A stretch of DNA of 64,000 bases from the NCBI GenBank assembly GCA_963662585.1, contig OY759729.1, forward strand, positions 1,316,947 to 1,380,946, in the 5' to 3' direction. The notes under the pieces were generated by a model. That model did no database searches. It saw only the letters and a program-made list of their open reading frames with translations, and was not told the DNA's origin. This DNA comes from Candidatus Cloacimonadales bacterium (GTDB lineage Bacteria; Cloacimonadota; Cloacimonadia; Cloacimonadales; JAFGVF01). The translations under genes and the position numbers were made by a program. The number at the start of each line of letters is the position of its first letter. The first letter of the stretch is position 1. Shown one piece after another: positions 16,988 to 56,325 of this stretch.

Positions 16988-19969
16988 TTATTTAGTCAAT
17001 ATAATTTTTCTTGTAATATGAATATTCTTTTGTTCCAATCTAACAAAATAGATACCTGAAGCAACTCTAGAGCCTCTATTGTTATCTCCATTCCAGATAA
17101 CACTATGACTTCCTATAGCTCTCTTTTCATTAAGTAAAGATTTAACAACTTGTCCTTTTAAGTTATATATTTTAACATTAACAATACCTTCTTCTGCAAC
17201 ATTGAAAAGAATATTAGTTGTAGGATTGAAAGGATTAGGATAGTTACTCAAGCAAACTTCAGAATTTACTGCAGGAGTATAATCTTTATTTCCAACAAAT
17301 TCAAATACCCCAAGATCTGGTATTGTACCATCACTATCTGGTGTTTCTACAGGATCACCTGCATCAATACAAGGAGATGAAGGATTTAATTGATACTCAG
17401 CAAATTTATCTATAAAATCGCTCTTATCGGCATCATCATCAATATTACCTACAAAGTCTGGAACTTCGTTTATGTTAGCAATACCAGGATATATCTCGCC
17501 ATCAGGTAATGAAATATTGTTATAACGAGCATCAATATAATCGTAATTTTGGACAATGTTATTACCAGGATTTTCTTTCCAAATAATGTTATTAACCAAT
17601 TCTGATGGTGTATAACGGGAAGATAAACCTTTATCGTAATTAACTATAGTATTATGCTTCATAATATTGTTATCAATATTAGTAACATCAACACCTTTAG
17701 AGTTATTCTTGTGATAAGTGATGAATACTAGATTTCTGTTAATTGTACTTACAGAATTTGTACCACTAACTGCTATCGCAGGATCACATGATTTTACAAC
17801 ATTATTATTAATGATAGCATCAATTTTACCTGTAAAATCAATACCTTTATAATTACCTCTTCTTGCTTCTGTTTGATAGATTTCAGTATGTTCAACTTTT
17901 GCTTCAACTGAGGTATTATAGTTATTTTTCAAGTAGATTGATTTATCAAAATCTGTGATGTGCCCATTATCTACAAAGAGATTAACTGCTCCTTTAAAGT
18001 AGAGAGCTTTTGAATTTGCTCTTTCATTATTATTATCATTACTTATAACTGCGTTTAAAATATTTGCATTAACAGGTGTTGATCCTGAAACGAAATATAT
18101 AGCATTATCGTAATTTTGGATATTTATAGTATCAATATTTATAGAGTTATCACCTTTTGATTTAATTCCATAATTATTTCTAGCAGATACATTGTTAGGT
18201 AATAAGATATCAGTTAAAGTTTGTTCACCTTCAGATTTGAATTCAAATCCTATATCATAGTTTTCAACTTCAATGTTATTAGCAGTAAGGCTAATTTTAC
18301 CATCTATGGTGATACCATTAGTATTACCTCTTACATTGTTTTTCCAGCTATCTGGTGAGTAATAAATTCTTATTACATCCATAGTTGGAGTTGTTGGTTC
18401 GTGTCCGTCGTCCTCATCACCATCACCATCTGCATCTGCTTTGATTGTTATACCTTCATCATAGTTTTCAATTTCAACATCTGTAAAGGCAGGATTAATT
18501 TTACCATCTACAACAATAGCTTTTGTAGTAACACTTCTATTACTTTTCCAGCTATCTGGTGAGTAATAAATTCTTATAACATCCATAGTAGGGGTAGTTG
18601 GTTCGTGCCCGTCGTCCTCATCGCCATCACCATCTGCATCAACTTTGATTGTGATACCTTCATCATAGTTTTCTATTTCAACATCTGTAAAGGCAGGATT
18701 AATTTTACCATCTACAACAATAGCTTTTGTAGTAACACTTCTATTACTTTTCCAGCTATCTGGTGAGTAATAAATTCTTATAACATCCATAGTAGGGGTA
18801 GTTGGTTCGTGTCCGTCGTCCTCATCACCATCACCATCTGCATCAACTTTGATTGTGATACCTTCATCATAGTTTTCTATTTCAACATCTGTAAAGGCAG
18901 GATTTACTTCACCTTCAACATAGATTCCTTTAGTAGTAACTGTTCGGTCACTTTTCCAGCTATCTGGTGAGTAATAAATTCTTATAACATCCATTGTAGG
19001 AGTAGTTGGTTCGTGTCCGTCGTCCTCATCACCATCACCATCTGTATCAGCTTTAATAGTGATACCTTCATCATAGTTTTCTATTTCAATATTAGTAAAT
19101 ACAGGATTTACTTCACCTTCAACATAGATTCCTTTAGTAGTAACTGTTCGGTCATCTTTCCAGCTATCTGGTGAGTAATAAATTCTTATAACATCCATAG
19201 TTGGTGTAGTTGGTTCGTGTCCGTCGTCCTCATCCCCGTCACCATCTGTATCAGCTTTAATAGTGATACCTTCATCATAGTTTTCTATTTCAATATTAGT
19301 AAGAGTTGGCTCAACCTTAGTATCCATATAGATACCTTTTGTAGTAACAGTTCTATTATTCTTCCAACTATCTGGTGAATAATATATTCTTATAACATCC
19401 ATAGTAGGGGTAGTAGGTTCATGTCCGTCATCTTCATCACCATCACCACCTGTATCAGCTTTAATGGTAACACCAGTCATATATCCATAGATATCTACAT
19501 GATTAATTTCAGATTGATTTCCATCACCAATATAGAGTCCTTCTTCAAAATCATTTGTTCCATAACCAATAATATTAGTATAATCAACATAATTTGTTTT
19601 GTAAAGGGATAATCCTTTACCAGCACCGATGATATTTGTAAAAGTGAAATTACTACCTTCAGAGTGGACTTCAATTCCTTGCCAAATTGTTGTTTCAGAG
19701 AGACCTTGAATATAGACAAGATTATCTTCAACACCATTAACACTTAAAATTCCGTAAGCAGTAATACTTGCATCTTCAATAACTAATACTGTGACTCCAG
19801 GATCAATTGTTAATGTTTCTCCTTGAGGAATTTCAATATCAGTAGTGATAATGTAAGGACTGCCCTCTTCATTCCAATTACCATAATTAGAATTTTCTTC
19901 AATTAAAGTTTCGGAGAAGAGCCCTAAAGTTAAAAGTAAAAGACTAAATAATAATAAAAACTTTTTCAT
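16988..19969 (-). CDS. Secreted beta-helix-like surface protein with six 68-aa acidic repeats and a T9SS-type C-terminal sorting domain
   Basis: Signal peptide (MKKFLLLFSLLLLTLGLFSE). Six copies of ...ITIKADTDGDGDEDDGHEPTTPTMDVIRIYYSPDSWK.... The C-terminal ~80 aa (YPNPFNPTTNILFNV...IYNLKGQVV...SGIYFVRLE) are typical of Por/T9SS secretion tails. Confidence 0.8.
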   Translation of the reverse strand: MKKFLLLFSLLLLTLGLFSETLIEENSNYGNWNEEGSPYIITTDIEIPQGETLTIDPGVTVLVIEDASITAYGILSVNGVEDNLVYIQGLSETTIWQGIEVHSEGSNFTFTNIIGAGKGLSLYKTNYVDYTNIIGYGTNDFEEGLYIGDGNQSEINHVDIYGYMTGVTIKADTGGDGDEDDGHEPTTPTMDVIRIYYSPDSWKNNRTVTTKGIYMDTKVEPTLTNIEIENYDEGITIKADTDGDGDEDDGHEPTTPTMDVIRIYYSPDSWKDDRTVTTKGIYVEGEVNPVFTNIEIENYDEGITIKADTDGDGDEDDGHEPTTPTMDVIRIYYSPDSWKSDRTVTTKGIYVEGEVNPAFTDVEIENYDEGITIKVDADGDGDEDDGHEPTTPTMDVIRIYYSPDSWKSNRSVTTKAIVVDGKINPAFTDVEIENYDEGITIKVDADGDGDEDDGHEPTTPTMDVIRIYYSPDSWKSNRSVTTKAIVVDGKINPAFTDVEIENYDEGITIKADADGDGDEDDGHEPTTPTMDVIRIYYSPDSWKNNVRGNTNGITIDGKISLTANNIEVENYDIGFEFKSEGEQTLTDILLPNNVSARNNYGIKSKGDNSINIDTINIQNYDNAIYFVSGSTPVNANILNAVISNDNNNERANSKALYFKGAVNLFVDNGHITDFDKSIYLKNNYNTSVEAKVEHTEIYQTEARRGNYKGIDFTGKIDAIINNNVVKSCDPAIAVSGTNSVSTINRNLVFITYHKNNSKGVDVTNIDNNIMKHNTIVNYDKGLSSRYTPSELVNNIIWKENPGNNIVQNYDYIDARYNNISLPDGEIYPGIANINEVPDFVGNIDDDADKSDFIDKFAEYQLNPSSPCIDAGDPVETPDSDGTIPDLGVFEFVGNKDYTPAVNSEVCLSNYPNPFNPTTNILFNVAEEGIVNVKIYNLKGQVVKSLLNEKRAIGSHSVIWNGDNNRGSRVASGIYFVRLEQKNIHITRKIILTK
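18254..19477 (-). repeat. 204-bp in-frame tandem repeat, 6 copies
   Basis: GGTTCGTG(T/C)CCGTCGTCCTCATC recurs at 18397, 18601, 18805, 19009 and 19213, with a diverged copy at 19417. This is an exact 204-bp period. Copies 4 and 5 encode identical 68-aa units. Confidence 0.9.
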
Positions 19970-24230: not shown

Positions 24231-24817
24231 AATTTAGTCTCCGTAAAGTTATTAATATTAATCTATTGTAACAAGGAAGAAAAAGCCCTAATTGTGTCAA
24301 GGAAAAAGGAGATTTACATCTCGATTATGCTTCTTAACTTCCATCAAATTCAATCATAATCTAGAGGAATTACCAAAACTAACATTCTGACATATCCAAG
24401 TTTGTTAAATCAAAAAAACTTTTCATGTTACTTTATAGACTAGTTATTTTTCTAATTAAAACCATAGAGAATTGTGATTCAGTAAATTGTTAAAATGCTT
24501 CCGTAGTAGTTATAAATCCATTGCATATGGAGAATGATACTAATCTAGAAAATAAAATAAAATAAAAAAAATAAAATAGAAGAGATAGTATTTATATTAA
24601 GATCATGTATATAATTCAAAAAATAATATCCTAACACTATTATTATTATTATGTTAGAGAAACATAGAAGTGCATTATTTAATCAATGTTTCCATTTATA
24701 ATACTCAGCAGAAACTAGGAACAAGACGCACACTTACGTTTTTTTGAGCTGGTATTAACTCCCCGCAACTCTTGTTTTCTATCATAATGCAGTAAGATTT
24801 CTTAACATTACTAATGA

Positions 24818-25447
24818 TTAGTTATTAGAAAATATATTCTCAATGACTTTAGGTAACTTAGGGATAATTCTTACTTCTATCCTTCTGTCATTTTGGCTAT
24901 AATAGCTTTCACTATCTTTATTTGAGTCTTTTTTAGGTTTTTCCGATCCGTATGAAGCTTGAACAATATCTACATTCTTTTTTAACTGATCATCTAAATT
25001 AAGTTTTATCTGTTTAACGAAAGATCTTGCCCTATTTAAACCCAATTTGTAATTATCATAACCAAATTCATCTCCAGACCTATCGGTATGCCCTTCAACA
25101 ATTATACAATACTTTTTATATCTATCATTATTTATAAGAAAATCATTCAATGCTTTGGAGAACTTTACCGCAAATGCTATCCCTTCATCATTCAACTCAG
25201 ATTTAGATATACTGAATAAAATAGATTCATTAATAATAATCTTATTCTCCATTTTTACATATTCAATGTTAGGTATATTTTCCAATAAATAACTAATATC
25301 ATTAAACTCTTTTAACTCTTCGTCTTCAAATTGTTTTATTGTAAAAAAAAATATATAAAATAGAACTAAGAAAATAAAAAACAATGAAAGAAAAATATCA
25401 ACAAAAGAAGCCCAATAATTGATATCATTTTCAGATTCGTACATCAT
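24818..25447 (-). CDS. MotB/ZorB-like protein: single TM with conserved Asp plus OmpA-like peptidoglycan-binding domain
   Basis: The TM helix WASFVDIFLSLFFIFLVLF has an embedded Asp as in MotB/ZorB. The OmpA-family motif is IIVEGHTDRSGDEFGYDNYKLGLNRARSFV. The start overlaps the upstream stop (ATGA). Confidence 0.75.
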   Translation of the reverse strand: MMYESENDINYWASFVDIFLSLFFIFLVLFYIFFFTIKQFEDEELKEFNDISYLLENIPNIEYVKMENKIIINESILFSISKSELNDEGIAFAVKFSKALNDFLINNDRYKKYCIIVEGHTDRSGDEFGYDNYKLGLNRARSFVKQIKLNLDDQLKKNVDIVQASYGSEKPKKDSNKDSESYYSQNDRRIEVRIIPKLPKVIENIFSNN

Positions 25448-27018
25448 AATCTCTTTCCGAATAAATGGCCCATAATACCCTTATTTTTGGTTGTATCAGG
25501 ACTACTTACCTTATCTTCTGATGTATGTTTATTGGATACGACATCTCTAATATTCTCTTCTAATTTCACTAATTGGTTAGAAATCTTTTTGTTAAGATTT
25601 TCATAATTTTCTATTAGATGGTTATCATCCCTAGATAATTTTAATAATTTCGTTATTTCGTCAGTATTAACTATATTAACAGATACATTTTCTTGACTTT
25701 TTATAAAACCAAAAAGATCATAAATATTTTTCTCAAATTTCTCTAGGTTCTGAGTTAATTCACTACTGAACTGAATGCTATGGTTACTGTAATCTTCCAT
25801 AATTTTGGTAGTAATTCTTGTAATATCATCAAATGCTATTTTTGCATCAATAGTTCGAATACTTACATCAGATATTTCGTTAAAATATTTCCCTAAATTT
25901 CCAACAAGTTTATCAATATTTTCAACATAATTGGGGATATCCACCATGTTTTCTAAAGATTTTGCTGATTTCACAAATGACTCAAGAGTATTATCTAATT
26001 TTAACATAGAATTTAGTGTTTGATCTGTCCTAGAATGAAATAAATTAGAAGACTGTAAAATATTCTCTATTTCTGGTAAAAGGGAATCTATGGCTGTCAA
26101 GTTGTTATTGCTTACAATATTATTTTTCAGAGCTAAAGAAGAATTTTCATCCATCCCTTGGTTTAACTTATTAAGATCACCAAAAATGGTTGTAAATTCT
26201 TGTTTTTGATTGATTAATATATCTTCATACTTCCTTAAATGCTTATCATTAATTTCAGTAAATGATTTAGTAAAATTTATAATTGTATTATTGATCAATG
26301 ACATTATACTTTCAATTCTATCAATACTCATTGCAGTTGTTTCATATTTACTTTCAATAAACGCTTTATTTTCTTCTCGATAATCTAACAAAAAATTTCC
26401 TAAAGCTACTTCTAAATTTTCGACAGAAGAGATTAATCTATTATCGAATTTAGATATGTAAGTTTTGGGCAAAAACATGGTTGAAAAGATTGTTTCAACA
26501 TCATGGATTCTACGAACAATTTCAGATTTTACTAAGGACCAAATTATACGAATAATTATTGTTGTAAATAGAGCAATAAGCGAAGTTATAAATCCAAACT
26601 TAGCTGAATCAATTAATGATAACATGATTTTCTGAGTTTCATAATCACTACCAAATGAAGAGATTCCAATTATTATTCCCAAAAATGTTCCCAATAAACC
26701 AACAATTGGTAAAATATTGGTTATTAGATTTATTTTCCTATCTGTTTTATTCAAATCATAATATATGAAATTTTTAAATATCTCAATTTTAATCTCACTT
26801 TTATTTTTGATAGAATTATACACATATAATAAATGTGGCTCTTGTCTAATAAAATCTAAATTTAACTTCATAAAGTCAGTAATACTGGAATTACTAAATA
26901 ACTCATTATTACTTTCGATGTCTTCTATTCTTTCCAATTGATGATATATAGATAGTAGCAAAACTGTTAACCCAACGATAACAATTAGAGCTGACACGAT
27001 CATTGCTCCAATAAACAT
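25444..27018 (-). CDS. MotA/ExbB/ZorA-like proton-channel protein with ~350-aa helical C-terminal tail
   Basis: Three TM helices with a MotA_ExbB-type signature (NILPIVGLLGTFLGIIIGI...FGFITSLIALFTTIIIRI). The remaining ~350 aa are low-complexity alpha-helical/coiled-coil sequence. An AAGAGG RBS lies upstream. Confidence 0.7.
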   Translation of the reverse strand: MFIGAMIVSALIVIVGLTVLLLSIYHQLERIEDIESNNELFSNSSITDFMKLNLDFIRQEPHLLYVYNSIKNKSEIKIEIFKNFIYYDLNKTDRKINLITNILPIVGLLGTFLGIIIGISSFGSDYETQKIMLSLIDSAKFGFITSLIALFTTIIIRIIWSLVKSEIVRRIHDVETIFSTMFLPKTYISKFDNRLISSVENLEVALGNFLLDYREENKAFIESKYETTAMSIDRIESIMSLINNTIINFTKSFTEINDKHLRKYEDILINQKQEFTTIFGDLNKLNQGMDENSSLALKNNIVSNNNLTAIDSLLPEIENILQSSNLFHSRTDQTLNSMLKLDNTLESFVKSAKSLENMVDIPNYVENIDKLVGNLGKYFNEISDVSIRTIDAKIAFDDITRITTKIMEDYSNHSIQFSSELTQNLEKFEKNIYDLFGFIKSQENVSVNIVNTDEITKLLKLSRDDNHLIENYENLNKKISNQLVKLEENIRDVVSNKHTSEDKVSSPDTTKNKGIMGHLFGKRL

Positions 27019-27029
27019 ATTTAACCTCT

Positions 27030-27935
27030 TTATTCTAAAATAATTTTACCTTTCTGCTGAATTATGAATGTCCCTTGAGAACTCTTAGTGTATGTAGGGT
27101 TTGAAACAATTTTAAAGTCTTTCTTTTGCACTGTTTCATTATTAATAACTGGATATTCAAAGGCATCACTATACCTTGAAAAAAAACTGTTATAATTATT
27201 GATATTAATTTTCATTTGAATTGTTAGTACATATTCATTGTCTTCAAGTTCTTCTAAAAACATATTTGAGTCAGCAGAATCAGTTTCTAATTCCTTAGAA
27301 AATGTTTTAAAAGTTACCCATATCTTTTCTTTTACAATCTCCGGTATATCATCTTTAGTAACTTCTGGTTTCTTATTACTTTCGGTAGCAGAATATTGAA
27401 CTAGATTATTGTTAGAAAGTTCTTTAGATGAATGATTACTTACACCATCTTTTTTTTTTTGGTTTTCTCCTTGGTTTGTCTCTCTGTTATTAATTCTATT
27501 ATTAATGATTAATTCTTTAGGTCTTTGAGGAACTTCTTTCTCTTTCTCCTCTTCTACATTTGTTTTTATATCATTAGTTTTTAGTTTTACTCTTTCTTCT
27601 AGTAAAGAGATGTCCCTTTTTAGTGTATTTAATTTATAATTTAAGTCATCTTTTTTTGTTTCAAGATGTTCAAATAATGAACGATAATCTCTACGATAAT
27701 CTCTAAATGATAAATTATATTTTATGTCTATAGTATAAATTATAACATCTATCAATACTAATAAAGAAGCAATAATGAATACAAAGATATAAGCATAATA
27801 TTTCTTGAAGCTTATTAAATTCAACTGGTTTAAGGGTTTAAAAAACATAAGAAGAATAGTTACAATAAAAATCACTGTTATTATATAAAAGGTAATTCTC
27901 AATGTTATTATTCTATTAGAATATTTACTTTTCAT
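27030..27935 (-). CDS. Two-TM coiled-coil protein, unknown function
   Basis: Two N-terminal TM helices, a coiled-coil segment (LNYKLNTLKRDISLLEERVKLK), a polar low-complexity linker and a ~100-aa C-terminal domain. The gene is tightly packed in the operon. Confidence 0.6.
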   Translation of the reverse strand: MKSKYSNRIITLRITFYIITVIFIVTILLMFFKPLNQLNLISFKKYYAYIFVFIIASLLVLIDVIIYTIDIKYNLSFRDYRRDYRSLFEHLETKKDDLNYKLNTLKRDISLLEERVKLKTNDIKTNVEEEKEKEVPQRPKELIINNRINNRETNQGENQKKKDGVSNHSSKELSNNNLVQYSATESNKKPEVTKDDIPEIVKEKIWVTFKTFSKELETDSADSNMFLEELEDNEYVLTIQMKININNYNSFFSRYSDAFEYPVINNETVQKKDFKIVSNPTYTKSSQGTFIIQQKGKIILE

Positions 27936-27939
27936 TAGA

Positions 27940-30900
27940 CTACTCCATTAGTAAATGATTTAGTTTTTTGATTAAATCCTGCATTCCGATAATAAAGATA
28001 GAACTAGACAAAGTTTGATATTTTTGATAATTATCAGTCATTGAAGTTCTAATTTTTCCCTCAATTTTCCCCCAATCATCAAATAAATCAAATAATAATT
28101 GATCCATATTCTTTAATTTTTCATCTTTGCTAAATATGTCTTTATACAGCTTACTTTCCTTGACAACATTAAAGAAATAAACATTAAATTTATATAAGTT
28201 TGTCTCTTCTTTGATTAAATTTAACTCAGATAATTTATTATCTTTTTCATTAAATATCTCATCAAATTCTGATATTTCTACAGAACATTCCTTAACGTTT
28301 CCATTAACATAAAGATTTTCATTAATCACAGGTGTATAAACTGAGTTCATGTCAGAGAATTTTTTATCCATATTGCACAATCCATATACAACTTCAGATT
28401 TATTTGAACTTGAAACTATGAAGTCAATATCCTTATCAACTTTTTCATCTGAATGTCTTAGACTGAAATTAATGATAGTTTTGTAAATTTCCAATTCATC
28501 CTCTAGAATTTTATTCTCTACTGGACTTGTCCAAGTAATTGATCTTATTCCATTTCCTGCTAAACAGACATCAATTTTGGTGTAATCATTAACATAATTT
28601 TTCATTTGTGAGCCAATTTCAAAAAATAGAGCACTATAAAAATATAACAATATTAAGCGAGGTCTATTAAATTTATCTTGAGTTGTCATTTTTTTCATAG
28701 ACTGAGTACTGATCTTTGAAACCATGATATTATAAATTGTTTTGAAATCTCCAGAATATGAATTCAATTCATTCTCGTTAACTTTATTGTCATATAGATA
28801 TCTTTCTTTAATTATATCATATAAAGGAGAAATTATTTTCATATTGCTATCTTTATAACCAATAACATTGTTACCTGCCCATAAATGACTAAATAGCATC
28901 AAAATTCCACCATTTTTCCAAATTGAAATATCTGATGATCCCCCTCCAACATCTATTACAATTGAGAGATTTGATGAGTTTTTTTCAATTTTACCAATAT
29001 GATTAAAGTACATTAAGCTTGCTTTACTTTCATCATAAGATTCAATATTCGGGTTGTTTAATATGTTACTCCACATGATATTATAATTTCTAATCTGTTC
29101 ACTAGAGAAGGCTTTCGGATAAGCCCATCTAAATAAAGTACTTTCGAGATTAACACGTTTTTTAATAAGCTCTGCATAAACTAAAAAGAATATAGTTTTG
29201 AGAAATGCTTCAGACCTTACTTGATTTTCATTATTAATATGCCATTTTAAGTTATAATATTCTTCTAGATTTATTCTCAAAATATTTAAATTTTTCACAT
29301 AGGAAATTACAGAGTCACGTATTGGTATCGGATGTTCATTTCTTTTATCTATATAAATCCTAGTATTAAATGGCATATTTACAGAATAATCTTTACTATT
29401 ATCATTTAAAAAAACGTTAGGTAAAAACCAATTAGTTATATTTTTCCAAAAATCTGTAATTATTGGATTTGCTTTTATTTCTTTATCTGTTGGAGATATA
29501 GATGATATAAATTCATGTTTGTTAATATTTATCTCATCAAATAAAGAATTATACTTCAACAATTCACAATTAGTATCATTTTGATGATCATCAATCAATA
29601 TTGCTACATTAGTGTGGGAAGTCCCAAAATCAAAACCAACAATTGCATTGTTTTTACAATTCTCAACATCAGTTAAATTGCTTAAATTCAGTATCAAATA
29701 ATTATAATTTTTGGATGTCTTTTCAATAAGCTTAATATATACTGGAAGTTTTTTTAAAGCCGCTACTTCAATTTGAGTTACATCTTGCTCCCCTGTTTTT
29801 CGAGAAGGATCATAAATTATAGGTGTAAATTTTGAATCATAAAATTCAACATTTAAATCAAATTTATCATTCAAACTCTTAGATACTAGCAAATAATATG
29901 GAAGTCGCCATTGTTTAGAATTTATTTTAGGCCATATAAGTACATTGGGTACAGGAGTTTCTTCATTAACAAATTTCAACAATATATTTTCTTCATTACT
30001 ATTAACACCTTGATGATAATATTTATTAATATTGATAATTCCATTCTTAGTAGGTATATCTAAACTAACTTTAATACCTTTACTACCTGCATCTGAGATA
30101 GACAGATATTTTTCAACATCAGCATAGTCAAAGTAGGTGAAATACAAATCAGTCAGTGGTATTGTATATTTTGATAGAGAGCTTTCTTCCCCTAGAACAA
30201 AATTATTTTTATTGAAATCTACATTGTTTTGAATAATAAACGGAGTAAAAAAATCGTGGAAAGGACTTATCCAAGGATATTTTACTTGTTCACCTGGAAG
30301 AACAAATCTATTCTTATTTTTTAATTCCGATAGTTTATAATTTTTATACCATTTATAACTATCATAAATAACACTATTTACCATATTATGGTCAGGATTT
30401 ATTATCAATGGTAGTATCCTTTGGTCACTTTTACTAGGATTAATTATTAAACCAGAGCTTAAAATACCACCTTTATAGATTCTTAATTTATCAAGCATTC
30501 CTTCTTCATTATTGAAAAGAGGGTCATTTTCATCTGGCAATTTAGAAAAACTAATATTACAATTTTCACAAATACCTTTGTCTTCCAGAAGAGCATTATA
30601 AAGTACCTTATAATCTGGGTTACTCTTTAGTTCAGGCAACAGATAATACATAATATATATTTGAAACCGCTCAGGTCTGTCTTTTAATAAAACAGGTTTT
30701 CTAAAGTACCTCTTTAAGTATCGATTCTCTGTTATTTCCTGTGAAATGAAAAATAAGGAATTGGGACATGTGCCTCCTAAAACAATCTCTCGATTACTTA
30801 GTGTTTTAATTGTTAAAATATTGATTTTCTTTATTTCTGGGCCAAAAGGAAACAGCTCAAAAATCTCTCTAATAATACTATCTTTATTATTTTCAAAAGT

Positions 30901-31200
30901 TACTTCATGTCTAATGATTTCAAATTCAAATCTATCACGGAAAAATAACATTTCTAATAAATCAAGTAAATAGGACATATAAACTATATGTAATGGGTTT
31001 TTATGATCTTCAATAATATTTATAAAATGAATCATTCTTTCCCAGGGAGATGGAACAGAATATCCTTGGCTGGAACTTTCACTACTATTTTGTTCAATCA
31101 TGTTATAAAAATTCTCAAAATCTTTGCTAAAGTCAATCCATTTACCAGGTGCTGGATTAGACATCTGGTTCTTATTCTTAGGTAGTAAGTGCCTTGGCAT
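27940..31200 (-). CDS. 1086-aa protein: unknown N-terminal half fused to an Hsp70/actin-fold (ASKHA) ATPase-like C-terminal half
   Basis: Phosphate-1-like VGFDFGTSHTNVA (aa 521-533), phosphate-2-like VIDVGGGSSDISIW (aa 748-761), adenosine-like DVCLAGNGIRS (aa 877-887) and KSEVVYGLC (aa 934-942) appear in the canonical order. There is no Walker A or DEAD/H box. A strong AAGGAGA RBS lies upstream. Confidence 0.65.
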   Translation of the reverse strand: MPRHLLPKNKNQMSNPAPGKWIDFSKDFENFYNMIEQNSSESSSQGYSVPSPWERMIHFINIIEDHKNPLHIVYMSYLLDLLEMLFFRDRFEFEIIRHEVTFENNKDSIIREIFELFPFGPEIKKINILTIKTLSNREIVLGGTCPNSLFFISQEITENRYLKRYFRKPVLLKDRPERFQIYIMYYLLPELKSNPDYKVLYNALLEDKGICENCNISFSKLPDENDPLFNNEEGMLDKLRIYKGGILSSGLIINPSKSDQRILPLIINPDHNMVNSVIYDSYKWYKNYKLSELKNKNRFVLPGEQVKYPWISPFHDFFTPFIIQNNVDFNKNNFVLGEESSLSKYTIPLTDLYFTYFDYADVEKYLSISDAGSKGIKVSLDIPTKNGIININKYYHQGVNSNEENILLKFVNEETPVPNVLIWPKINSKQWRLPYYLLVSKSLNDKFDLNVEFYDSKFTPIIYDPSRKTGEQDVTQIEVAALKKLPVYIKLIEKTSKNYNYLILNLSNLTDVENCKNNAIVGFDFGTSHTNVAILIDDHQNDTNCELLKYNSLFDEININKHEFISSISPTDKEIKANPIITDFWKNITNWFLPNVFLNDNSKDYSVNMPFNTRIYIDKRNEHPIPIRDSVISYVKNLNILRINLEEYYNLKWHINNENQVRSEAFLKTIFFLVYAELIKKRVNLESTLFRWAYPKAFSSEQIRNYNIMWSNILNNPNIESYDESKASLMYFNHIGKIEKNSSNLSIVIDVGGGSSDISIWKNGGILMLFSHLWAGNNVIGYKDSNMKIISPLYDIIKERYLYDNKVNENELNSYSGDFKTIYNIMVSKISTQSMKKMTTQDKFNRPRLILLYFYSALFFEIGSQMKNYVNDYTKIDVCLAGNGIRSITWTSPVENKILEDELEIYKTIINFSLRHSDEKVDKDIDFIVSSSNKSEVVYGLCNMDKKFSDMNSVYTPVINENLYVNGNVKECSVEISEFDEIFNEKDNKLSELNLIKEETNLYKFNVYFFNVVKESKLYKDIFSKDEKLKNMDQLLFDLFDDWGKIEGKIRTSMTDNYQKYQTLSSSIFIIGMQDLIKKLNHLLME

Positions 31201-31209
31201 CTTGTCTCC

Positions 31210-32580
31210 TTACAAAATATTGTTTAAGTTTTTTATGATTTTATCAATAAAGTCACCCGTAAGATCAATATCATCAAATAATATTTTATCAAAGTATGAA
31301 GAATCTTTCTTTCTGTATTTATCTTTGTTATTAAATAATAATGTAGATAAATTTAGCTCTGAATCAATGATCTTCAAAGCAGGCGCATTATTACTCATTT
31401 GCCAAATCCAGATTTTGAACAATTCCATAAATTCAATTAGTTTTTTAAACTCGTTAGAATTTTCTATAAATGTAGGATAAGTAATATCTAATTTTCTTAA
31501 CCAACCAATTCTATTTATTATTTTCTTGTTTTTGCTAATTAGTAATCCATTCAAATCAATCAAGTAATTGTATATTAATCCCATTTTTTCAAATGGCTCA
31601 TTCTTCTTTTTATGGGGTAGGTCTTCAGACATTAGCGAATAGTCATCAATATTTTCAGTGGGATTACTCGCACCAATTCTCATAAATGATGAATATTTTT
31701 TGTTTTCCCAAAAATTAATAGCTGAATATCCTGCAAGTAATTCTATAAAATGAGAATCATTGATCTGAGTTTTATTACCAATAGAATAATTATCAATTAT
31801 TTTTGTATTTGCAAAATCTTCTCCGATGATATAAACACTGTCAAAATTCTCATACTTCTCTTTATAGTACTGACAGGAAGAAATAGTATTACCAATGAAG
31901 TTAGCAGAATCTGGCAATATTTCATCTTTATCATTAGTATGTAAGTTTTTGTTAAGATGAAAATATGGAAGAATCAGAGATCCGCCAACAGAAGTTTTCG
32001 GCGATTGATTCTTTATCATTCGCGATATAACAGGAAAACCTGAAGCTCCTGTACCTCCAAATACTGAACTAAACAGAAACACTTTATCATCTTCATTTTT
32101 TTTAAGTTTCTGGATTATTAAATCCCATGGAAATAATTTACTATTATTTATAAAGTTTGACATTAACAACGAACCTATCGATGGCCTAGCCCTATAACCA
32201 AAAGTTAGATCTAAATTAAGTTCCTTTTTTGAATATAAAAGGTCTAATAATGCTTGTTCATCTTCGTTTAAACCGTTATAATTTACTATTTTTTTTAGAT
32301 TATTGTTTTCATTATTAATATTAACATGAGGATTTATCCTTTTAATTAAAGATATTGAAGTAAAAAATAATGAACCTTTGCTTGGTTCCTTTAAATGTTG
32401 ACGGATTTCCTGATAATGTTTAGCAAGATCTTCAGCCCTATTTGCATTACCATTCCCAGCATCTGGATCAATAATATATATATCTACTTCACTTGGACCT
32501 AATCCCATAGCACAGAGAAATATAAAAGATTCAAGACATCTTGTTCCTGTCCCACCAACTGCAAAAATATGATAAGTCAC
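31210..32580 (-). CDS. Tubulin/FtsZ-superfamily-like GTPase (Tubulin_2 / FtsZ-like type)
   Basis: An N-terminal Gly loop IFAVGGTGTR (aa 5-14) and a tubulin-signature-like FGGTGASGFPV (aa 174-184) follow a beta-strand (KVFLFSSVF). The GTG start overlaps the upstream TAG stop (TAGTG). Confidence 0.6.
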   Translation of the reverse strand: MTYHIFAVGGTGTRCLESFIFLCAMGLGPSEVDIYIIDPDAGNGNANRAEDLAKHYQEIRQHLKEPSKGSLFFTSISLIKRINPHVNINNENNNLKKIVNYNGLNEDEQALLDLLYSKKELNLDLTFGYRARPSIGSLLMSNFINNSKLFPWDLIIQKLKKNEDDKVFLFSSVFGGTGASGFPVISRMIKNQSPKTSVGGSLILPYFHLNKNLHTNDKDEILPDSANFIGNTISSCQYYKEKYENFDSVYIIGEDFANTKIIDNYSIGNKTQINDSHFIELLAGYSAINFWENKKYSSFMRIGASNPTENIDDYSLMSEDLPHKKKNEPFEKMGLIYNYLIDLNGLLISKNKKIINRIGWLRKLDITYPTFIENSNEFKKLIEFMELFKIWIWQMSNNAPALKIIDSELNLSTLLFNNKDKYRKKDSSYFDKILFDDIDLTGDFIDKIIKNLNNIL

Positions 32581-32999
32581 TAAAAGCTCCTTTTATCGAA
32601 GATTCTTGTTATATATATCTTTTCTTTAAAAACACCTATTTCATTTAAAATCGTTATAATAATAATATAAACTAAAGCATTAACAATAAAGTGATTAATC
32701 ACAAACATAAATATCATTGATGTTATATCTATTGTATCAAGAATAGCTAACTTTTTTATTGAAAGATAGATAGTATATATAGTATTCACACAAATATCAA
32801 TCACAAAAAACAACCAAAAATAATATCTACCTTTTATCCTACTATAAGGAATAAAATAGTAACCAATAATTAAAAAAATTATAGTTCCCAAACCAACTAA
32901 CATTGCCCGATCCATAGTAGTCATCCATGTATTGAGATTATCGGTTCCTAGTTTTGTAAGTTCTCCATATAATAAAAAATATACTATTTTATAAAGCAT
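32580..32999 (-). CDS. Small 4-TM membrane protein, unknown function
   Basis: 139 aa with about four hydrophobic helices. It starts 1 nt after the upstream stop and its own stop overlaps the next start. Confidence 0.55.
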   Translation of the reverse strand: MLYKIVYFLLYGELTKLGTDNLNTWMTTMDRAMLVGLGTIIFLIIGYYFIPYSRIKGRYYFWLFFVIDICVNTIYTIYLSIKKLAILDTIDITSMIFMFVINHFIVNALVYIIIITILNEIGVFKEKIYITRIFDKRSF

Positions 33000-33000
33000 T

Positions 33001-34281
33001 CTATTTCCTTTTATTAATTTTTAAGTAATACTCACTATTGCATAATTGCCCACTAACTAGCATTTTTTCATTAATTGCTTCAATTAATGAACTGATTTTA
33101 TATGTCTTTTCTTTATTTTCTAAAATACTATCATCTTCAGTGTTATTCAGATAAACCCATTTATATTTATCAATACTATCCCGAAAAGTTAATCTACATA
33201 AATACTCTCCAATCGAAGAATCCCCAAAAGGTAACAAAAAAGTTATCTTTTTTCCCTGATTACCAGAAATCACATTCTGAGAATTAAGATTAATCGACCC
33301 ACTATATTTGGAATTTACTGAAACTAATGAATCTGTTATGTTTATTATTTTATAATCAATAACATTTCCTATATCATAAGTAAAGTTTTTCAAAGTTATT
33401 CGTAAAGAATCAGCATTTTCATTCAAATTATACTCAGTCAATGGGATATTTTCAAATTGTTTATTCATATAAAAGGTAGGTGGAAAATTATAGCCATCAA
33501 TATTATCAGAATATTTTAGATTGTTTGTCATTTTCTCACTAAATCTAATTGAAAAATCGAAAATATTTTTTACTTTCTTATTAATGAGATATTCGCTATT
33601 ACTTCTACCTATGAATAACCCATAAATAGGTCTTTTTATTTGTAATACTTTAGGAAGATATTGCTTCTTTGCTTCTGAATAATAGTTTCCTAAAAAATCA
33701 ATTTTTTTCATATAAATATTTAAGAAACCTTTTTTTGCAACCAGATCCGAAAGTTTAGCTGGAAATAATTGAGAATCGATTTCTGAGTATTCAGTTGATA
33801 GGATAAGATCTGTTAAAATTAAGTAGACAGAGTTAAAGTCATCTTTTTCAATAAAATCTATAACTTTTAAAAAATTGGTATATTGGTCATCATATTTCAA
33901 ATGTTTCTCATTGTTTTTATCAGGCTTGATGTAATAAATTGATTCCGCAATATCACCTTCAATTTCTTTAATACTAGATCCAAAAGTATATAATTTAATA
34001 TCTTCATTGCTAAAATTGCTACATATTGAAGAAATTAATCCTACCATACTACTATTACCAGTTGTATATCCTTTCATTGTTGCACTTACATCAATGAAAA
34101 TCTTCATACTCTTTAATGAGTCAGAAGTTGAAGGTTGATAAACTCCGAAATATTCATTTAACACTGATAAATTTTCTTTTTTATCTTCAAATAAATTACT
34201 ATCGTTAATTCCAGTATACTTATTACAACTAATGAGCAATGCCAATAAACATAACATAAAAATGAATGATTTCACAGTCAT
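33001..34281 (-). CDS. vWA-like lipoprotein (start revised to internal ATG)
   Basis: The lipoprotein signal MTVKSFIFMLCLLALLISC starts at the ATG at 34281, preceded by a GGAGA RBS. A candidate promoter lies inside the longer listed ORF. vWA/MIDAS-like motifs occur in order: KIFIDVSATMKG (DxSxT), IKLYTFGSS, YTNFLKVIDFI, VYLILTDL. Confidence 0.55.
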   Translation of the reverse strand: MTVKSFIFMLCLLALLISCNKYTGINDSNLFEDKKENLSVLNEYFGVYQPSTSDSLKSMKIFIDVSATMKGYTTGNSSMVGLISSICSNFSNEDIKLYTFGSSIKEIEGDIAESIYYIKPDKNNEKHLKYDDQYTNFLKVIDFIEKDDFNSVYLILTDLILSTEYSEIDSQLFPAKLSDLVAKKGFLNIYMKKIDFLGNYYSEAKKQYLPKVLQIKRPIYGLFIGRSNSEYLINKKVKNIFDFSIRFSEKMTNNLKYSDNIDGYNFPPTFYMNKQFENIPLTEYNLNENADSLRITLKNFTYDIGNVIDYKIINITDSLVSVNSKYSGSINLNSQNVISGNQGKKITFLLPFGDSSIGEYLCRLTFRDSIDKYKWVYLNNTEDDSILENKEKTYKISSLIEAINEKMLVSGQLCNSEYYLKINKRK

Positions 34282-34309
34282 TATAATCTCCATTTTACTT
34301 AGTATACAA

Positions 34310-34338
34310 ATTAATAAAGGCATATCTTTTTTTGTCAA
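34310..34338 (-). promoter_or_regulatory. Candidate sigma-70 promoter of the seven-gene operon
   Basis: The minus strand reads TTGACA (34338-34333), 17 nt, then ATTAAT (34315-34310), about 25-30 nt upstream of the ATG at 34281. Confidence 0.4.
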
Positions 34339-34450
34339 GAGTTTATTTATTAGTAATAAAAATTTGGCATCATAATTGAATCATAACAATATAACTATCT
34401 ATATTAACAATGAAGATTTATTAACTAAGCTAACATTTAACACAAATCGA

Positions 34451-36556
34451 GTAGGGTGGTGCGTTAGCACCATCCCTCTCACAGAACCGTGCGTACGGGA
34501 CTCGTACACGGCTCCTGATAAACCTTGTAATTATTCATAATAATTAAATAAAACACTTGTAGGTTTCGATAGTAAGTCATATAGCCCTAATTGCTCAAAC
34601 CATTCATTAGGTAAAGCTCTATGAATATGATAACAACCAGAATTCCTCCAATGTGTCATAGATATTTTCGGAAAATCACTTTTATGCCCAACTCTTCTAA
34701 GTTGTTGGTGAAAAGCTTTCCAACTTTTCCATTCCCGCATTTTCTTCATTCTTAGTCGCCGCCTTATCCATGATAATAGAGACTGAAAGACTCCTTTGCA
34801 ATTTGCCACCCTAAAGTAATTCGACCAACCTCTCAATATCGGATTAAGTCTTTTAATCATTGTCTGGACATTAATTCCGCTATTCCGTGGAGTCAGTGAC
34901 CGAATCTTATCTTTGAACGCTTTTACTCTTTTATCCTCTATCTTTACATATGATTCATGTATTTCGAAGCCAAGATACTTGACTCCTTTAAATACACTCG
35001 CAATATGTGTCTTTTCTTCATTTACGATGAGATAAATTGAGTTTAGATATTCTACCGCAATTCGTTGATATTGTTCTGCTTTTTTCTTAGTCTTAGCAAA
35101 AAGTAAAATGTCATCAGCATAGCGTACTATCTCGATTCCTCGACTTTTCATTTCTTGGTCAAAACTATCAAGATATATGTTCATAAGAAGTGGAGAGATT
35201 ACCCCTCCTTGTGGACTTCCTACTTCAGTTTCGCTATACTTCCCTTCTTGCATAACACCAGACTTTAAGATTTTCTCTATCAACTTTAATAATGTTCCGT
35301 CACTTATTTTCCTATTTAATGATTGCATTATGAATTTATGATTTAATGTATCAAAACATTTTGATAAATCCATATCCACTACAAAAGGAAGCTCTTCCTG
35401 AACCATTAATATATGTGCTTTAGCCACTGCCTTTTGACAACTTTTGTTGGGACGGTAGCCATAGCTTTGTGGATGAAAATCAGGTTCAAAAATTGGTTGG
35501 ATGATGTTATTTATTGCCTGCTGTACGATTCTATCTTTTACAGTAGGTATTCCTAATGGCCTCATCTTACCATTTCCTTTAGGTATCTCTACCCGTTTCA
35601 CAGGTGATGGGATATACTTCCCACTTTTCAATTCTAAATGAATCTGCTCTAAGTTCTCTTGTAGAGTCTCACCAAACTTAGATATAGTAATATTATCTAT
35701 ACCTTCTGCACCTCTATTTTTCTTTACCTTTAGGAAAGATTCATAGAGATTACCTTTTGAGTAAACTTTATCAATTAAACTGTACCACTTTTTCATTTAG
35801 TTTCTCCTTTTTCACAATAAACAATGTTTAAATTATACTTTCAAATGACAGTTAATTCAATGAAGACCTTCGAAGTTTTTAGCATAAAGCAATCTATCAA
35901 AGATTTTATAGGTTTTGACTATTATCCTTTTTTTAACTTCATCTACTCAGTCTCGTAAGGTCATGATAGAAAGAAGGTACTCACCACCGTCTATCCGAGC
36001 CTTGAATCTTTCGATTCTCTTCGTTTCCTACTTTTAAGAAAATATCTCTTTAATTATGTTTATTCTTTGGTTTATCTTCATCCCTTCACATGAGATATTT
36101 CCTTTTGAAAAATATCCCCCAATATTACTAAGAATATTGTCCCCTCTGTTTTATCCTCCAGTCTGTCACCAGCTTTCATAGGCAAAGGGTTAGTCACTAC
36201 TACGGAATCATCTGCCACCTGCTTATGCTTAATACAACTCTTGCCTTTCAGCTTGTAGTCATAGTTACTCTATTAGAGACATTAACAGGCTTCCCCAGTT
36301 AAGCTATCCTGCCTGAATGTAAATCCATCTGTTGTAATCCATGTAATCGACTGACTTTTGGGCGTTCTCACTTTTCGAAGAGTTACCCACTACATGAACC
36401 AAAATCAGTTTACTTTCGCTATGTTCCACATTCTTCCTGCGTCTTACTTCAGACCCTGCCGTTGCCAGCAACGCCCTTGACCTCAGATTGACTTCCTGTC
36501 AGTTGGGTGTCAGGACTTCTTTCAGTCCATCGGCTCAGATAACATTCTGGGCAAAC
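34451..36556 (-). mobile_element. Group II intron (full length, ORF in domain IV)
   Basis: On the minus strand, domain V GAGCCGUGUACGAGUCCCGUACGCACGGUUC (AGC triad) and a domain VI-like hairpin ending ...CACCACCCUAC at about 34451 directly follow the RT ORF. The GC-richer structured 5' part runs to about 36556 (GUUUGCCCAGA..., resembling the GUGCGCCCAGA-type 5' end). The 5' boundary is uncertain by about 10 nt. Confidence 0.8.
34531..35796 (-). CDS. Group II intron reverse transcriptase/maturase (no endonuclease domain)
   Basis: RT motifs including YADD (VRYADDILLF), RPLGIPTVKDRIVQQA and a maturase X motif (RGWSNYFR). At 421 aa there is no C-terminal HNH domain. Confidence 0.9.
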   Translation of the reverse strand: MKKWYSLIDKVYSKGNLYESFLKVKKNRGAEGIDNITISKFGETLQENLEQIHLELKSGKYIPSPVKRVEIPKGNGKMRPLGIPTVKDRIVQQAINNIIQPIFEPDFHPQSYGYRPNKSCQKAVAKAHILMVQEELPFVVDMDLSKCFDTLNHKFIMQSLNRKISDGTLLKLIEKILKSGVMQEGKYSETEVGSPQGGVISPLLMNIYLDSFDQEMKSRGIEIVRYADDILLFAKTKKKAEQYQRIAVEYLNSIYLIVNEEKTHIASVFKGVKYLGFEIHESYVKIEDKRVKAFKDKIRSLTPRNSGINVQTMIKRLNPILRGWSNYFRVANCKGVFQSLLSWIRRRLRMKKMREWKSWKAFHQQLRRVGHKSDFPKISMTHWRNSGCYHIHRALPNEWFEQLGLYDLLSKPTSVLFNYYE

Positions 36557-39772: not shown

Positions 39773-40843
39773 ATGAAAACTTATAATTGGGATAATTTAT
39801 CCAAAAATGATATGATAGAATTAATATCCACTAATGATAAGCTTTTACTTCAAAAGATGTATGACGAAGCTTACAAAGTGAAATTAAGATATGTAGGAAA
39901 TACTGTTTATTTCCGTGGTTTAGTAGAGTTTAGTAATATCTGTACCAAAGATTGCCTTTACTGTGGAATTAGAAAAGGTAATGATAGAGTTGATAGATAC
40001 TGTCTTTCCAAAGAAGATATTTTACAGTCTGCAAAATGGGCTCATGACCATAACTATGCCTCCTTTGTTTTGCAATCTGGTGAAAGAACAGATGAAGAAT
40101 TTGTTTCTTTTGTAGAAGAGGTATTATACGAAATTAAAGATAAATATGGATTAGGTGTAACTCTTTCTCTAGGGGAAGAGAGTCGAGAGACTTACCGTAG
40201 ATGGAGAAAAGCAGGGGCAAGTAGATATCTACTTAGAATTGAAAGCTCTAATCCTGAAATTTACAAACTAATTCATCCAGAAGAGTGTGATTTCCAGGCC
40301 AGACTTCAAGCAATAGAAGATTTGAGAGCTGAAGATTATCAGGTTGGAACTGGAGTTATGATAGGCCTACCAACTCAGACTGCTGAAGATTTAGTCAATG
40401 ATATTCTCTTTTTCAAAGAACATGACATTGATATGATAGGTATGGGACCTTATATTGTACATCATGATACCCCAATGGCTGCCATGATGAAAGATTATGA
40501 TCCTGCTCATCAATTGGAATTAGGACTTAAAATGATAGCTTTAACTAGACTTTATCTCAAGGATGTTAATATTGCTTCTACAACAGCTTTACAAACTTTA
40601 GATTCCCTTGGTAGAGAACGAGGTATCTTGGCTGGAGCTAATATTTGTATGCCAGTTGTTTATGAATCTGTCAATAGAAAGAACTATCTGCTTTATGATA
40701 ATAAACCTGCTCTTACAGAAACCAGTGAAGAAAATATGAAAGCTTTTGAGAAATCTATTCATCGCATTGGGGAAAATATCGGTTACGGGGTAATGGGTAA
40801 TTCTCCTCACTATAAAAAGAGAAAGGAAGCGAATAATGGCTAA
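39773..40843 (+). CDS. hydE: [FeFe]-hydrogenase maturase HydE (radical SAM)
   Basis: EFSNICTKDCLYCGIRKGN (CX3CX2C), VTLSLGE, RYLLRIESSNPEIY and FFKEHDIDMIGMGPYI match the HydE pattern. Confidence 0.85.
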   Translation: MKTYNWDNLSKNDMIELISTNDKLLLQKMYDEAYKVKLRYVGNTVYFRGLVEFSNICTKDCLYCGIRKGNDRVDRYCLSKEDILQSAKWAHDHNYASFVLQSGERTDEEFVSFVEEVLYEIKDKYGLGVTLSLGEESRETYRRWRKAGASRYLLRIESSNPEIYKLIHPEECDFQARLQAIEDLRAEDYQVGTGVMIGLPTQTAEDLVNDILFFKEHDIDMIGMGPYIVHHDTPMAAMMKDYDPAHQLELGLKMIALTRLYLKDVNIASTTALQTLDSLGRERGILAGANICMPVVYESVNRKNYLLYDNKPALTETSEENMKAFEKSIHRIGENIGYGVMGNSPHYKKRKEANNG

Positions 40844-56045: not shown

Positions 56046-56139
56046 TCTTCCTCTGATATTTTTACTTGTGTAACTCAAATAGTTTAGTTGTAGTTTTTCT
56101 TTATTCTTTTATTGAAGAATCTCCGTTATATTTGATCGT

Positions 56140-56325
56140 ACTTCGCAATCATTACGGACTCATTGGCAGGTTTCCTGACTTGTAGCGAGTAATATTTATA
56201 AGTGCCTTCCCGGGTAATTATCCAGTGACTCTTAATACTCATAATTGCTACTTACAGTGGCGAAGACCGTTCCCGATTCTAACGGGATTCCCTTTTACTC
56301 TTGCACCAGTGAGTTACACATTTTA
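56140..56325 (-). promoter_or_regulatory. Cobalamin (B12) riboswitch
   Basis: The minus strand reads ...GGTGCAAGAGTAAAAGGGAATCCCGTTAGAATCGGGAACGGTCTTCGCCACTGT...AGTCAGGAAACCTGCC. It contains the conserved core and B12-box of the cobalamin riboswitch family and lies in the 5' leader of the ABC/TonB operon. Confidence 0.85.

Follow-up and report, generated by a model that had tools for sequence, protein, structure and literature searches.

The stretch of DNA analysed here (the window) comprises 64,000 nucleotides of contig OY759729.1 from a Candidatus Cloacimonadales bacterium (positions 1,316,947 to 1,380,946 of the forward strand), and at 24818-34338 it carries seven co-directional, tightly packed open reading frames (ORFs) on the minus strand. 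An earlier note, made from the letters alone, had described them as an operon in which a stator pair like the ZorA and ZorB proteins of Zorya anti-phage systems is coupled to a tubulin-like GTPase, a giant protein of the actin/Hsp70 fold and a lipoprotein with a vWA-like domain. The present analysis established that the locus is one envelope-spanning system composed of two modules. The first, or core, is predicted to consist of an outward-facing lipoprotein with a metal-ion-dependent adhesion site (MIDAS)/vWA-like region, a protein with four transmembrane (TM) segments, a GTPase of the Tubulin_2 family and a giant ATPase of the ASKHA superfamily (actin/Hsp70 fold). A putative membrane-anchored coiled-coil protein links the core to the second module, a predicted stator of the Zorya ZorA5B2 type, so that a single operon unites homologues of a flagellar-stator-type motor, of tubulin and of actin/Hsp70.

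Organisation of the operon

The genes, numbered in the direction of transcription, and the promoter candidate in front of them are as follows.

33001-34281, minus strand: gene 1, lipoprotein with a MIDAS/vWA-like N-terminal half, about 426 aa from the ATG at 34281
32580-32999, minus strand: gene 2, small polytopic membrane protein, 139 aa, about 4 TM segments by hydropathy
31210-32580, minus strand: gene 3, predicted GTPase of the tubulin/FtsZ superfamily, a short member of the Tubulin_2 (FtsZl1) clade, 456 aa, GTG start
27940-31200, minus strand: gene 4, giant two-part protein, 1086 aa, unknown fold over residues 1 to about 500 and predicted ASKHA ATPase over about 510-1086
27030-27935, minus strand: gene 5, putative membrane-anchored coiled-coil/low-complexity adaptor with a small C-terminal domain, 301 aa, 2 TM segments
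25444-27018, minus strand: gene 6, ZorA-like channel of the MotA/ExbB type, 524 aa, 3 TM segments and a helical cytoplasmic tail of about 350 aa
24818-25447, minus strand: gene 7, ZorB-like subunit, 209 aa, N-terminal TM helix with Asp17 and an OmpA-type peptidoglycan-binding domain
34310-34338, minus strand: candidate sigma-70-type promoter, TTGACA-N17-ATTAAT, read directly from the sequence

All seven genes, and the close packing first described for them, were found as claimed; read from the gene 7 end, the junctions consisted of a 4-nt overlap (ATGA), gaps of 11, 4 and 9 nt, a 1-nt overlap (TAGTG) and a 1-nt gap. A Shine-Dalgarno-like motif (AGGA, AGGAG, GGAG or GAGG) preceded each start, as had also been claimed, the one in front of the last gene being weak. 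Hydropathy analysis reproduced the proposed membrane topology, with one TM segment in the ZorB-like protein, three in the ZorA-like protein, two in the 301-aa protein and about four in the 139-aa protein; the tubulin-like and giant proteins had none, and the product of gene 1 had an N-terminal signal. The promoter candidate fared less well. Its two boxes were present at 34338-34333 (TTGACA) and 34315-34310 (ATTAAT), but promoter-type matches occurred in the region no more often than expected from shuffled sequence (84 observed against 83.8), and since AT-rich DNA yields them at the same rate when shuffled, the match carries little weight. The first base of the TTGACA box is also the start (TTG 34338) that the ORF-listing program had assigned to gene 1. 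The likely start is instead the ATG at 34281, which has GGAG six bases upstream; from there the protein begins MTVKSFIFMLCLLALLISC, a lipoprotein signal that ends in LLISC and supplies the lipobox cysteine.

Genes 6 and 7 encode a ZorAB-like stator pair

The product of gene 7 matched the PADLOC ZorB1 model over its full length (E-value 1.8e-19) and exceeded the Pfam cut-off for OmpA (28.1 bits, cut-off 27.2). Its best solved relative was 8vvn_B, which it matched from end to end with the TM aspartate aligned. Asp17, Trp12 and Arg139 were invariant in 33 of 33 members of the ZorB-like family; Arg139 lies in an NxxLxxxRA motif of the OmpA domain, the alanine of which was kept in 29 of the 33. The product of gene 6 matched PADLOC ZorA2 (3e-9) and Pfam MotA_ExbB (9.5e-5). 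A profile of 23 ZorA-like family members gave 388 matches to sequences in the PDB, and the best 60 of these were ZorA complexes and, besides them, coiled-coil proteins, with no MotA, ExbB, TolQ or PomA chain among the 60. The top-scoring ZorA-type chains were 8vvn_C (2e-13), 8vvi_F and the E. coli ZorA chains 8qyk, 8qyd, 8qyy and 8qyh (E. coli ZorA, 4e-10 to 2e-8).

Thr111 and Ser146 of gene 6 aligned with Thr147 and Ser184 of E. coli ZorA (EcZorA) and were invariant in all 23 family members; in EcZorA these two residues form the ion-selectivity filter that contacts the essential TM residue Asp26 of ZorB (PMC11946911). Asp17 of the ZorB-like protein and Thr111/Ser146 of the ZorA-like protein thus make up the predicted proton path of a ZorA5B2-like stator, which the OmpA-type domain would anchor to peptidoglycan, while the helical tail, about 350 aa long, would extend into the cytoplasm. 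Neither protein reached the NCBIfam cut-offs for the Zorya components (22.7 bits against 100 for ZorA_2, 16.2 bits against 400 for ZorB1). Taken together, the profile matches and the invariant ion-path residues bear out the proposed ZorA/ZorB likeness, and the assignment of the pair to a ZorAB-like lineage that is not orthologous to Zorya types I-III is well supported at the level of sequence.

The core pairs a tubulin-like GTPase with a giant predicted ASKHA protein

That gene 3 encodes a protein of the tubulin/FtsZ superfamily was borne out by several lines of evidence. The GGTG (T1) and SxFGGTGAS (T4) loops were invariant in an alignment of 35 homologues. The AlphaFold2 (AF2) model was confident (predicted local distance difference test score (pLDDT) 86, predicted template-modelling score (pTM) 0.92), and in a Foldseek search of the PDB the best 50 matches listed were all tubulin, FtsZ or CetZ (E-value about 1e-5, probability 1.0), with template-modelling scores of 0.23-0.43, as expected for a very divergent member. 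The best viral matches of the protein were phage tubulins. The window protein itself matched PF00091 alone, at 23.6 bits and so below the cut-off of 33; the family consensus matched PF13809 (Tubulin_2) at 7e-15 (55.5 bits, cut-off 27), and many of the homologues carried a precomputed PF13809 match. PF13809 has been equated with the FtsZ-like group of Makarova and Koonin by Santana-Molina et al. (2023; PMC9871819). On these profile matches the family, whose members are 463-549 aa long (456 aa for the window protein), is assigned to Tubulin_2, the FtsZl1 clade.

The C-terminal region of the giant protein is a predicted ASKHA ATPase, in line with the phosphate and adenosine motifs first read from its sequence. 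Across 28 homologues the residues D524 and G526 (DFGTS), D750, G752 and D757 (DVGGGSSD; DxGGGxxD) and G882 (GNG; GxNG) were invariant. The family profile matched actin, MreB and FtsA at phosphate-2 (8.6e-7 to 1e-4) and MamK and DnaK at phosphate-1, with the motifs in canonical order, and Pfam FtsA and MreB were matched by 10 and 8 of the 28 members, respectively. An AF2 model made from a 5-sequence alignment was unusable (pLDDT 31), and since the structure model failed, the ASKHA fold rests on the motifs and profiles. The alignment was too shallow for AF2 because word-indexed searches had returned only 2 and 5 proteins, probably owing to the Asn/Ile/Lys-rich composition of the query. A HMMER scan of 1.84 billion cluster representatives yielded 3021 relatives, 1293 of them at E-values of 1e-30 or below, so that the family amounts to about 3000 clusters at 50% identity; neither Pfam nor NCBIfam has a model for this ASKHA family of about 1100 aa. 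The N-terminal 500 or so residues were conserved, with a motif SIPxPWARP...HPL, and matched nothing. In Formosa and Pedobacter the giant was split at the domain boundary into parts of 386-429 aa and 698-709 aa. Two other assignments of the giant were considered and set aside: a PADLOC match to PDC-M61B (1e-6, residues 472-568) was shared by only 1 of 20 family members, and a SrfB-like identity found no Pfam SrfB match with either the protein or the family consensus.

Lipoprotein, four-TM and coiled-coil proteins

The lipobox cysteine of gene 1 was kept in more than 90% of 28 homologues, and the family shared a MIDAS-like consensus, YxDxSxSMxGY ... TDL, represented in the window protein by IDVSATMKGY and LILTDL. 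The lipoprotein part of the original description thus stood, as did the conserved DxSxS...TDL pattern, but matches to Pfam VWA_2 stayed below threshold (6e-4 for 1 of the 28 members, 0.039 for the consensus), and the family profile found neither a vWA domain nor any other solved structure among PDB sequences. A vWA domain in gene 1 is plausible as judged from its motifs.

In almost every locus examined, the genes for the lipoprotein and the tubulin-like protein had between them one for a protein of 130-190 aa with 3-4 TM segments, and in most loci the position of gene 5 was taken by a gene whose product has 210-510 aa and 1-2 TM segments. The 139-aa protein of the window showed marginal similarity to its positional counterparts (hidden Markov model (HMM) E-values 0.0025-0.027, hhalign probability 24-34%). 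The counterparts of gene 5 formed two linked families, to which the window protein was weakly related (hhalign E-value 0.0026). In Pedobacter yonginense (locus L002, 12930-15026) a C-terminal domain of about 95 aa from the gene 5 family was fused to the C-terminus of the giant (8e-17), and that locus had no separate coiled-coil gene. This fusion ties the coiled-coil family to the giant.

Distribution and modularity of the system

In a scan that took one genome per species, the tubulin-like gene had relatives in at least 568 species, patchily spread over many phyla; Cyanobacteria, Bacillota, Acidobacteriota and Pelagibacteraceae were among the groups represented, and many homologues were in Bacteroidota. 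For 82 loci ORFs were called and compared with iterated HMMs built from the window proteins, and each component was counted over the loci with enough flanking sequence.

Giant gene after the tubulin-like gene: 68 of 68 loci
Lipoprotein gene upstream: 63 of 71 loci
ZorA-like gene present: 32 of the 63 loci with enough downstream sequence
ZorB-like gene present: 29 of the 63 loci with enough downstream sequence

The earlier note had held that a lack of conserved co-occurrence would argue against a single system. What was found was a giant gene behind every tubulin-like gene that could be scored, and the same gene order in several phyla. The nearest relative among the matches listed, a metagenome-assembled genome (MAG) of Cloacimonadota, had the identical seven-gene order at modest identity (tubulin-like 40%, giant 34%, ZorB-like 34%, lipoprotein 29%), and the order lipoprotein, TM protein, tubulin-like GTPase, giant, (coiled-coil protein), ZorA, ZorB recurred in Bacteroidota, Acidobacteriota, Poribacteria and Bacillota. 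The tubulin-like and giant proteins also occurred as natural fusions, namely P0187 (1529 aa; tubulin-like 1-495, giant 504-1524), P0115 (1689 aa) and P0191 (1681 aa), which are Rosetta-stone evidence for their working together as a single unit. The pairing of the two is thus obligate, and it is the third module position that varies among loci. When the tubulin-like proteins were placed on a neighbour-joining tree, the loci with ZorAB fell into three blocks. Where ZorAB was missing, the position after the giant was taken in two loci (L005 and L006) by a canonical HSP70 gene (1e-77 to 1e-82) and in another (L087) by a DO-GTPase gene (5.7e-9). Further genes followed ZorB in some relatives, encoding Exo_endo_phos nuclease (6 loci), SNase (3), transglutaminase-core (3), trypsin-like (2) and Asp protease (2) proteins. 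A copy consisting of the core only was carried by a 47.5-kb mobilizable plasmid of Gloeothece; no copy of the system was found in phage records.

Genomic context

The operon of the window is flanked by genes for IleRS, a sigma-54 response regulator, alaS, buk, a fumarase-type lyase and HydE/HydF. The richness of the proteins in Asn, Ile and Lys pointed out in the earlier note was confirmed by measurement: these residues made up 30% of the operon's proteins against 20-21% of the alaS and buk products. The operon was also low in G+C, at about 26% against 32-35%. The earlier conclusion that the operon is an acquired island did not hold. The G+C content at third codon positions (GC3) was the same as in the flanking genes (0.18-0.22 for the operon, 0.22 for alaS, 0.19 for buk), so that the low overall value reflects the amino acid composition and not the codon third positions, and with housekeeping genes on both sides an island origin is unsupported for this copy.

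Other loci differed in their surroundings. The neighbours of a Pedobacter locus included Hachiman-type HamA/DEAD, HSDR_N and HEPN genes, those of another relative TIR/SLATT genes, and a PADLOC scan of 145 flanking ORFs gave scattered matches to AbiE, Shedu, CARF and RT-protease models (RT, reverse transcriptase).

Several further features of the window were recorded. The operon and buk are separated by a group II intron (34446-36471, minus strand; Rfam domains D1-D4 at 36304-36471, D5/D6 at 34446-34516), with its RT encoded at 34531-35796, between D1-D4 and D5/D6; the end of this mobile element is about 100 nt upstream of the promoter candidate. Because at least four RT proteins that are nearly identical come from one and the same 3.3-Mb contig, the intron is multi-copy. 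On the other side, between gene 7 and alaS, is a 590-bp spacer (24231-24817) that is ORF-free, very AT-rich and contains short T/A-rich repeats; no terminator-like hairpin was detected after the operon. Farther away, 13099-16887 (minus strand) encodes a 1262-aa protein with an adenylate/guanylate cyclase domain, a STAND-type AAA_16 ATPase and TPR repeats, an architecture also met in conflict systems, and 16988-19969 (minus strand) a 993-aa protein with the C-terminal sorting domain of the type IX secretion system (T9SS). HydE/G-like and HydF [FeFe]-hydrogenase maturases are encoded at 39773-42044 (plus strand). Along with the use of Shine-Dalgarno motifs and the nearest homologue of the system, the T9SS sorting domain and these maturases point to an anaerobic host from the Fibrobacteres-Chlorobi-Bacteroidetes (FCB) group, probably Cloacimonadota. 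A cobalamin riboswitch (56148-56325, minus strand, 86.6 bits) lies 5' of the minus-strand ORF at 55278-56078.

Possible functions of the system

We favour a role in conflict or defence, triggered at the envelope, and consider the chances of this to be about even. The hints that point to it are that the closest solved relatives of the stator are Zorya complexes, that the system is patchily spread and has a plasmid-borne copy, and that the trailing enzymes vary; that ZorAB, Hsp70 and a DO-GTPase replace one another as the third module, in keeping with conflict systems predicted to combine DO-GTPase, tubulin, HSP70 and vWA components (PMC7159879); and that some loci lie amid Hachiman/HEPN, TIR/SLATT, AbiE, Shedu or CARF genes. 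By analogy with the Zorya mechanism (Hu et al., 2024; PMC11946911), a peptidoglycan-anchored ZorA5B2-like motor might be released by perturbation of the envelope, and the tail of the ZorA-like protein might pass the signal to the tubulin-like/ASKHA pair. Assembly of this pair at the membrane, dependent on nucleoside triphosphates, could then act as the threshold, the scaffold or the effector step, and in relatives the trailing nucleases or proteases could execute the response; the outward-facing vWA-like lipoprotein would be a candidate second sensor or anchor. As no nuclease or protease is encoded in the window, the response there would have to come from the assembled NTPases themselves or from a factor whose gene lies elsewhere. 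A stricter version, which would amount to a fourth form of Zorya-like immunity and in which the proton-driven ZorAB-like rotary sensor triggers assembly of the tubulin-like and giant proteins at a breach of the envelope, the polymers themselves are the immune effector or scaffold, the vWA protein is a co-sensor and no nuclease is recruited, is put forward only tentatively, and we consider it rather unlikely.

Several observations weigh against a defence function. The window copy has no trailing nuclease or protease by Pfam or PADLOC; its flanks are housekeeping genes, as are those of several other loci, and its GC3 is host-like. In the PADLOC scan of 145 flanking ORFs, for which there was no matched background, no model matched more than three ORFs, and none of the PADLOC 2023 models represents the tubulin-like, the giant or the lipoprotein family. 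The homology of the four-TM and coiled-coil proteins to their positional counterparts was weak by phmmer, HMM and hhalign, the ASKHA and vWA assignments rest on motifs and profiles, and all members of the system are known from sequence alone. Moreover, NTPases of the cytoskeletal type fit membrane remodelling equally well.

A conditional housekeeping machine for membrane or envelope remodelling, in which the NTPases shape or repair the membrane and the stator, much as in Tol-Pal, uses the lipoprotein to energise a process in the periplasm, is the alternative that survives best, and we regard it as possible though doubtful. FtsZl1 operons with vWA and MotA/OmpA genes were interpreted in this way by Makarova and Koonin (2010; PMC2875224), and the FtsZl1 operon of Deinococcus uses the same stator lineage; a remodelling machine would also suit the host-like GC3 and housekeeping flanks of the window, an operon free of any effector enzyme, and components that span the whole envelope. 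It accounts less readily for a patchy distribution that includes a plasmid-borne copy, for nuclease and protease genes appended in relatives, for a third module that is swapped between lineages, for loci within defence islands and for a stator that resembles ZorAB specifically and not TolQR or ExbBD.

It is improbable that the system is a surface apparatus for motility, secretion or adhesion of FCB-group bacteria, with a MotAB-family motor driving a vWA adhesin as in GldLM/T9SS or Agl-Glt. Many homologues are indeed from Bacteroidota, a protein with a T9SS sorting tail is encoded nearby, and vWA domains are common in adhesins. Against this, the system is also found in Cyanobacteria, Bacillota, Acidobacteriota and Pelagibacteraceae, the solved structures that best match the stator (among the best 60 of 388) are ZorA complexes, the 10 flanking ORFs of the window that were scanned include no gliding or T9SS machinery gene, and the stator is absent from about half of the loci. 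The fact that about half of the core loci lack ZorAB, and that the core also occurs with other modules, could be taken to mean that an orphan ZorAB pair lies beside a tubulin-like operon by chance, but this is very improbable given the same gene order with overlapping or nearly abutting frames in at least five phyla, the way ZorAB presence tracks the tubulin-like tree in three blocks, and the same stator lineage accompanying long FtsZl1 proteins.

If the defence function is correct, the ZorAB sensor-motor would be a portable input for which non-nuclease outputs are possible and which is exchangeable with DO-GTPase or Hsp70 modules, and the operon would offer a tractable entry to the FtsZl1/Tubulin_2 systems, known since 2010 by computation only. 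If the system serves remodelling, it would be a new bacterial cytoskeletal system coupled to the proton motive force.

Comparison with known systems

The absence of Zorya effectors claimed in the earlier note was confirmed. Three types of Zorya are distinguished, with ZorC and ZorD (type I), ZorE (type II) or ZorF and ZorG (type III) as partners of ZorAB (Hu et al., 2024, PMC11946911; Mariano et al., 2025, PMC11890865). None of ZorC/ZorD, ZorE or ZorF/ZorG was found in the seven window proteins, for which the PADLOC matches were ZorA, ZorB and the weak PDC-M61B, and Pfam detected no helicase or nuclease domain in the operon. Like Zorya, the window system has a 3-TM channel of the ZorA kind whose helical tail is long, a ZorB-like subunit that combines a TM aspartate with a peptidoglycan-binding domain, and the conserved Thr/Ser filter. 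It differs in that the stator is partnered by a tubulin-like GTPase and an ASKHA giant, together with a lipoprotein and two membrane proteins, and in having a shorter tail, about 350 aa against about 500 aa in the 729-aa EcZorA, as estimated from an alignment with the end of TM3 near residue 200. No named system was found in PADLOC 2023, NCBIfam, Pfam or the searchable literature, in which no paper was found on Zorya, ZorAB or MotA combined with tubulin, vWA or Hsp70 in this arrangement; in public annotation the tubulin-like gene has the generic label "tubulin-like domain-containing protein", and RefSeq labels its neighbours "hypothetical". The earlier note had not recognised the combination as a named system, and to that extent it was right, but the combination was partly foreshadowed by two sets of computational predictions.

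The first is that of Makarova and Koonin (2010; PMC2875224), who predicted a role in membrane remodelling for the system formed by FtsZl1 proteins (763-1208 aa) and the vWA, OmpA and GTPase genes next to them. The entries taken from their supplementary table list vWA - FtsZl1 - B7 - COG1360 in cyanobacteria, and in Deinococcus a 421-478-aa protein, a 108-aa protein, FtsZl1, MotA/TolQ/ExbB and OmpA. These operons likewise combine a Tubulin_2-clade GTPase with an upstream vWA-type gene and membrane proteins, some of them, in Deinococcus and cyanobacteria, with a MotA/TolQ/ExbB plus OmpA/MotB pair; the FtsZl1 proteins described there are long, with a coiled coil and a helical C-terminal domain, whereas the window GTPase has 456 aa. 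On plasmid 2 of D. deserti (locus L095, 109351-118592) our HMMs matched the stator pair (ZorA-like 1.4e-23, ZorB-like 8.8e-15) and barely detected the FtsZl1 protein (0.056); an 859-aa protein and beta-helix repeat proteins follow there. A giant ASKHA protein of the window type (about 1100 aa) has no homologue in this operon, and none is apparent by length or annotation in the entries taken from the 2010 table. No link between the stator and Zorya was drawn in 2010, when Zorya was unknown.

The second set comprises the GTPase-centric conflict systems predicted by Kaur, Burroughs, Iyer and Aravind (2020; PMC7159879), in which DO-GTPase/GAP1 occurs with tubulin, HSP70 and vWA components. The window system resembles these in its tubulin-family, Hsp70-superfamily, vWA (plausible here) and TM components. 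None of its seven proteins matched DO-GTPase, GAP1 or FNIII in Pfam or NCBIfam; a ZorAB-like stator occupies the DO-GTPase position, MotA going unmentioned by Kaur et al. (PMC7159879), and the ASKHA protein belongs to a distinct 1100-aa family. The FtsZl1 operons of 2010 and the conflict systems of 2020, with their tubulin, HSP70 and vWA components, thus come closest to the window system, and both are known from computation. The window system is not a member of any named Zorya type. The D. deserti operon suggests that ZorAB-like stators linked to Tubulin_2 proteins make up an entire class.

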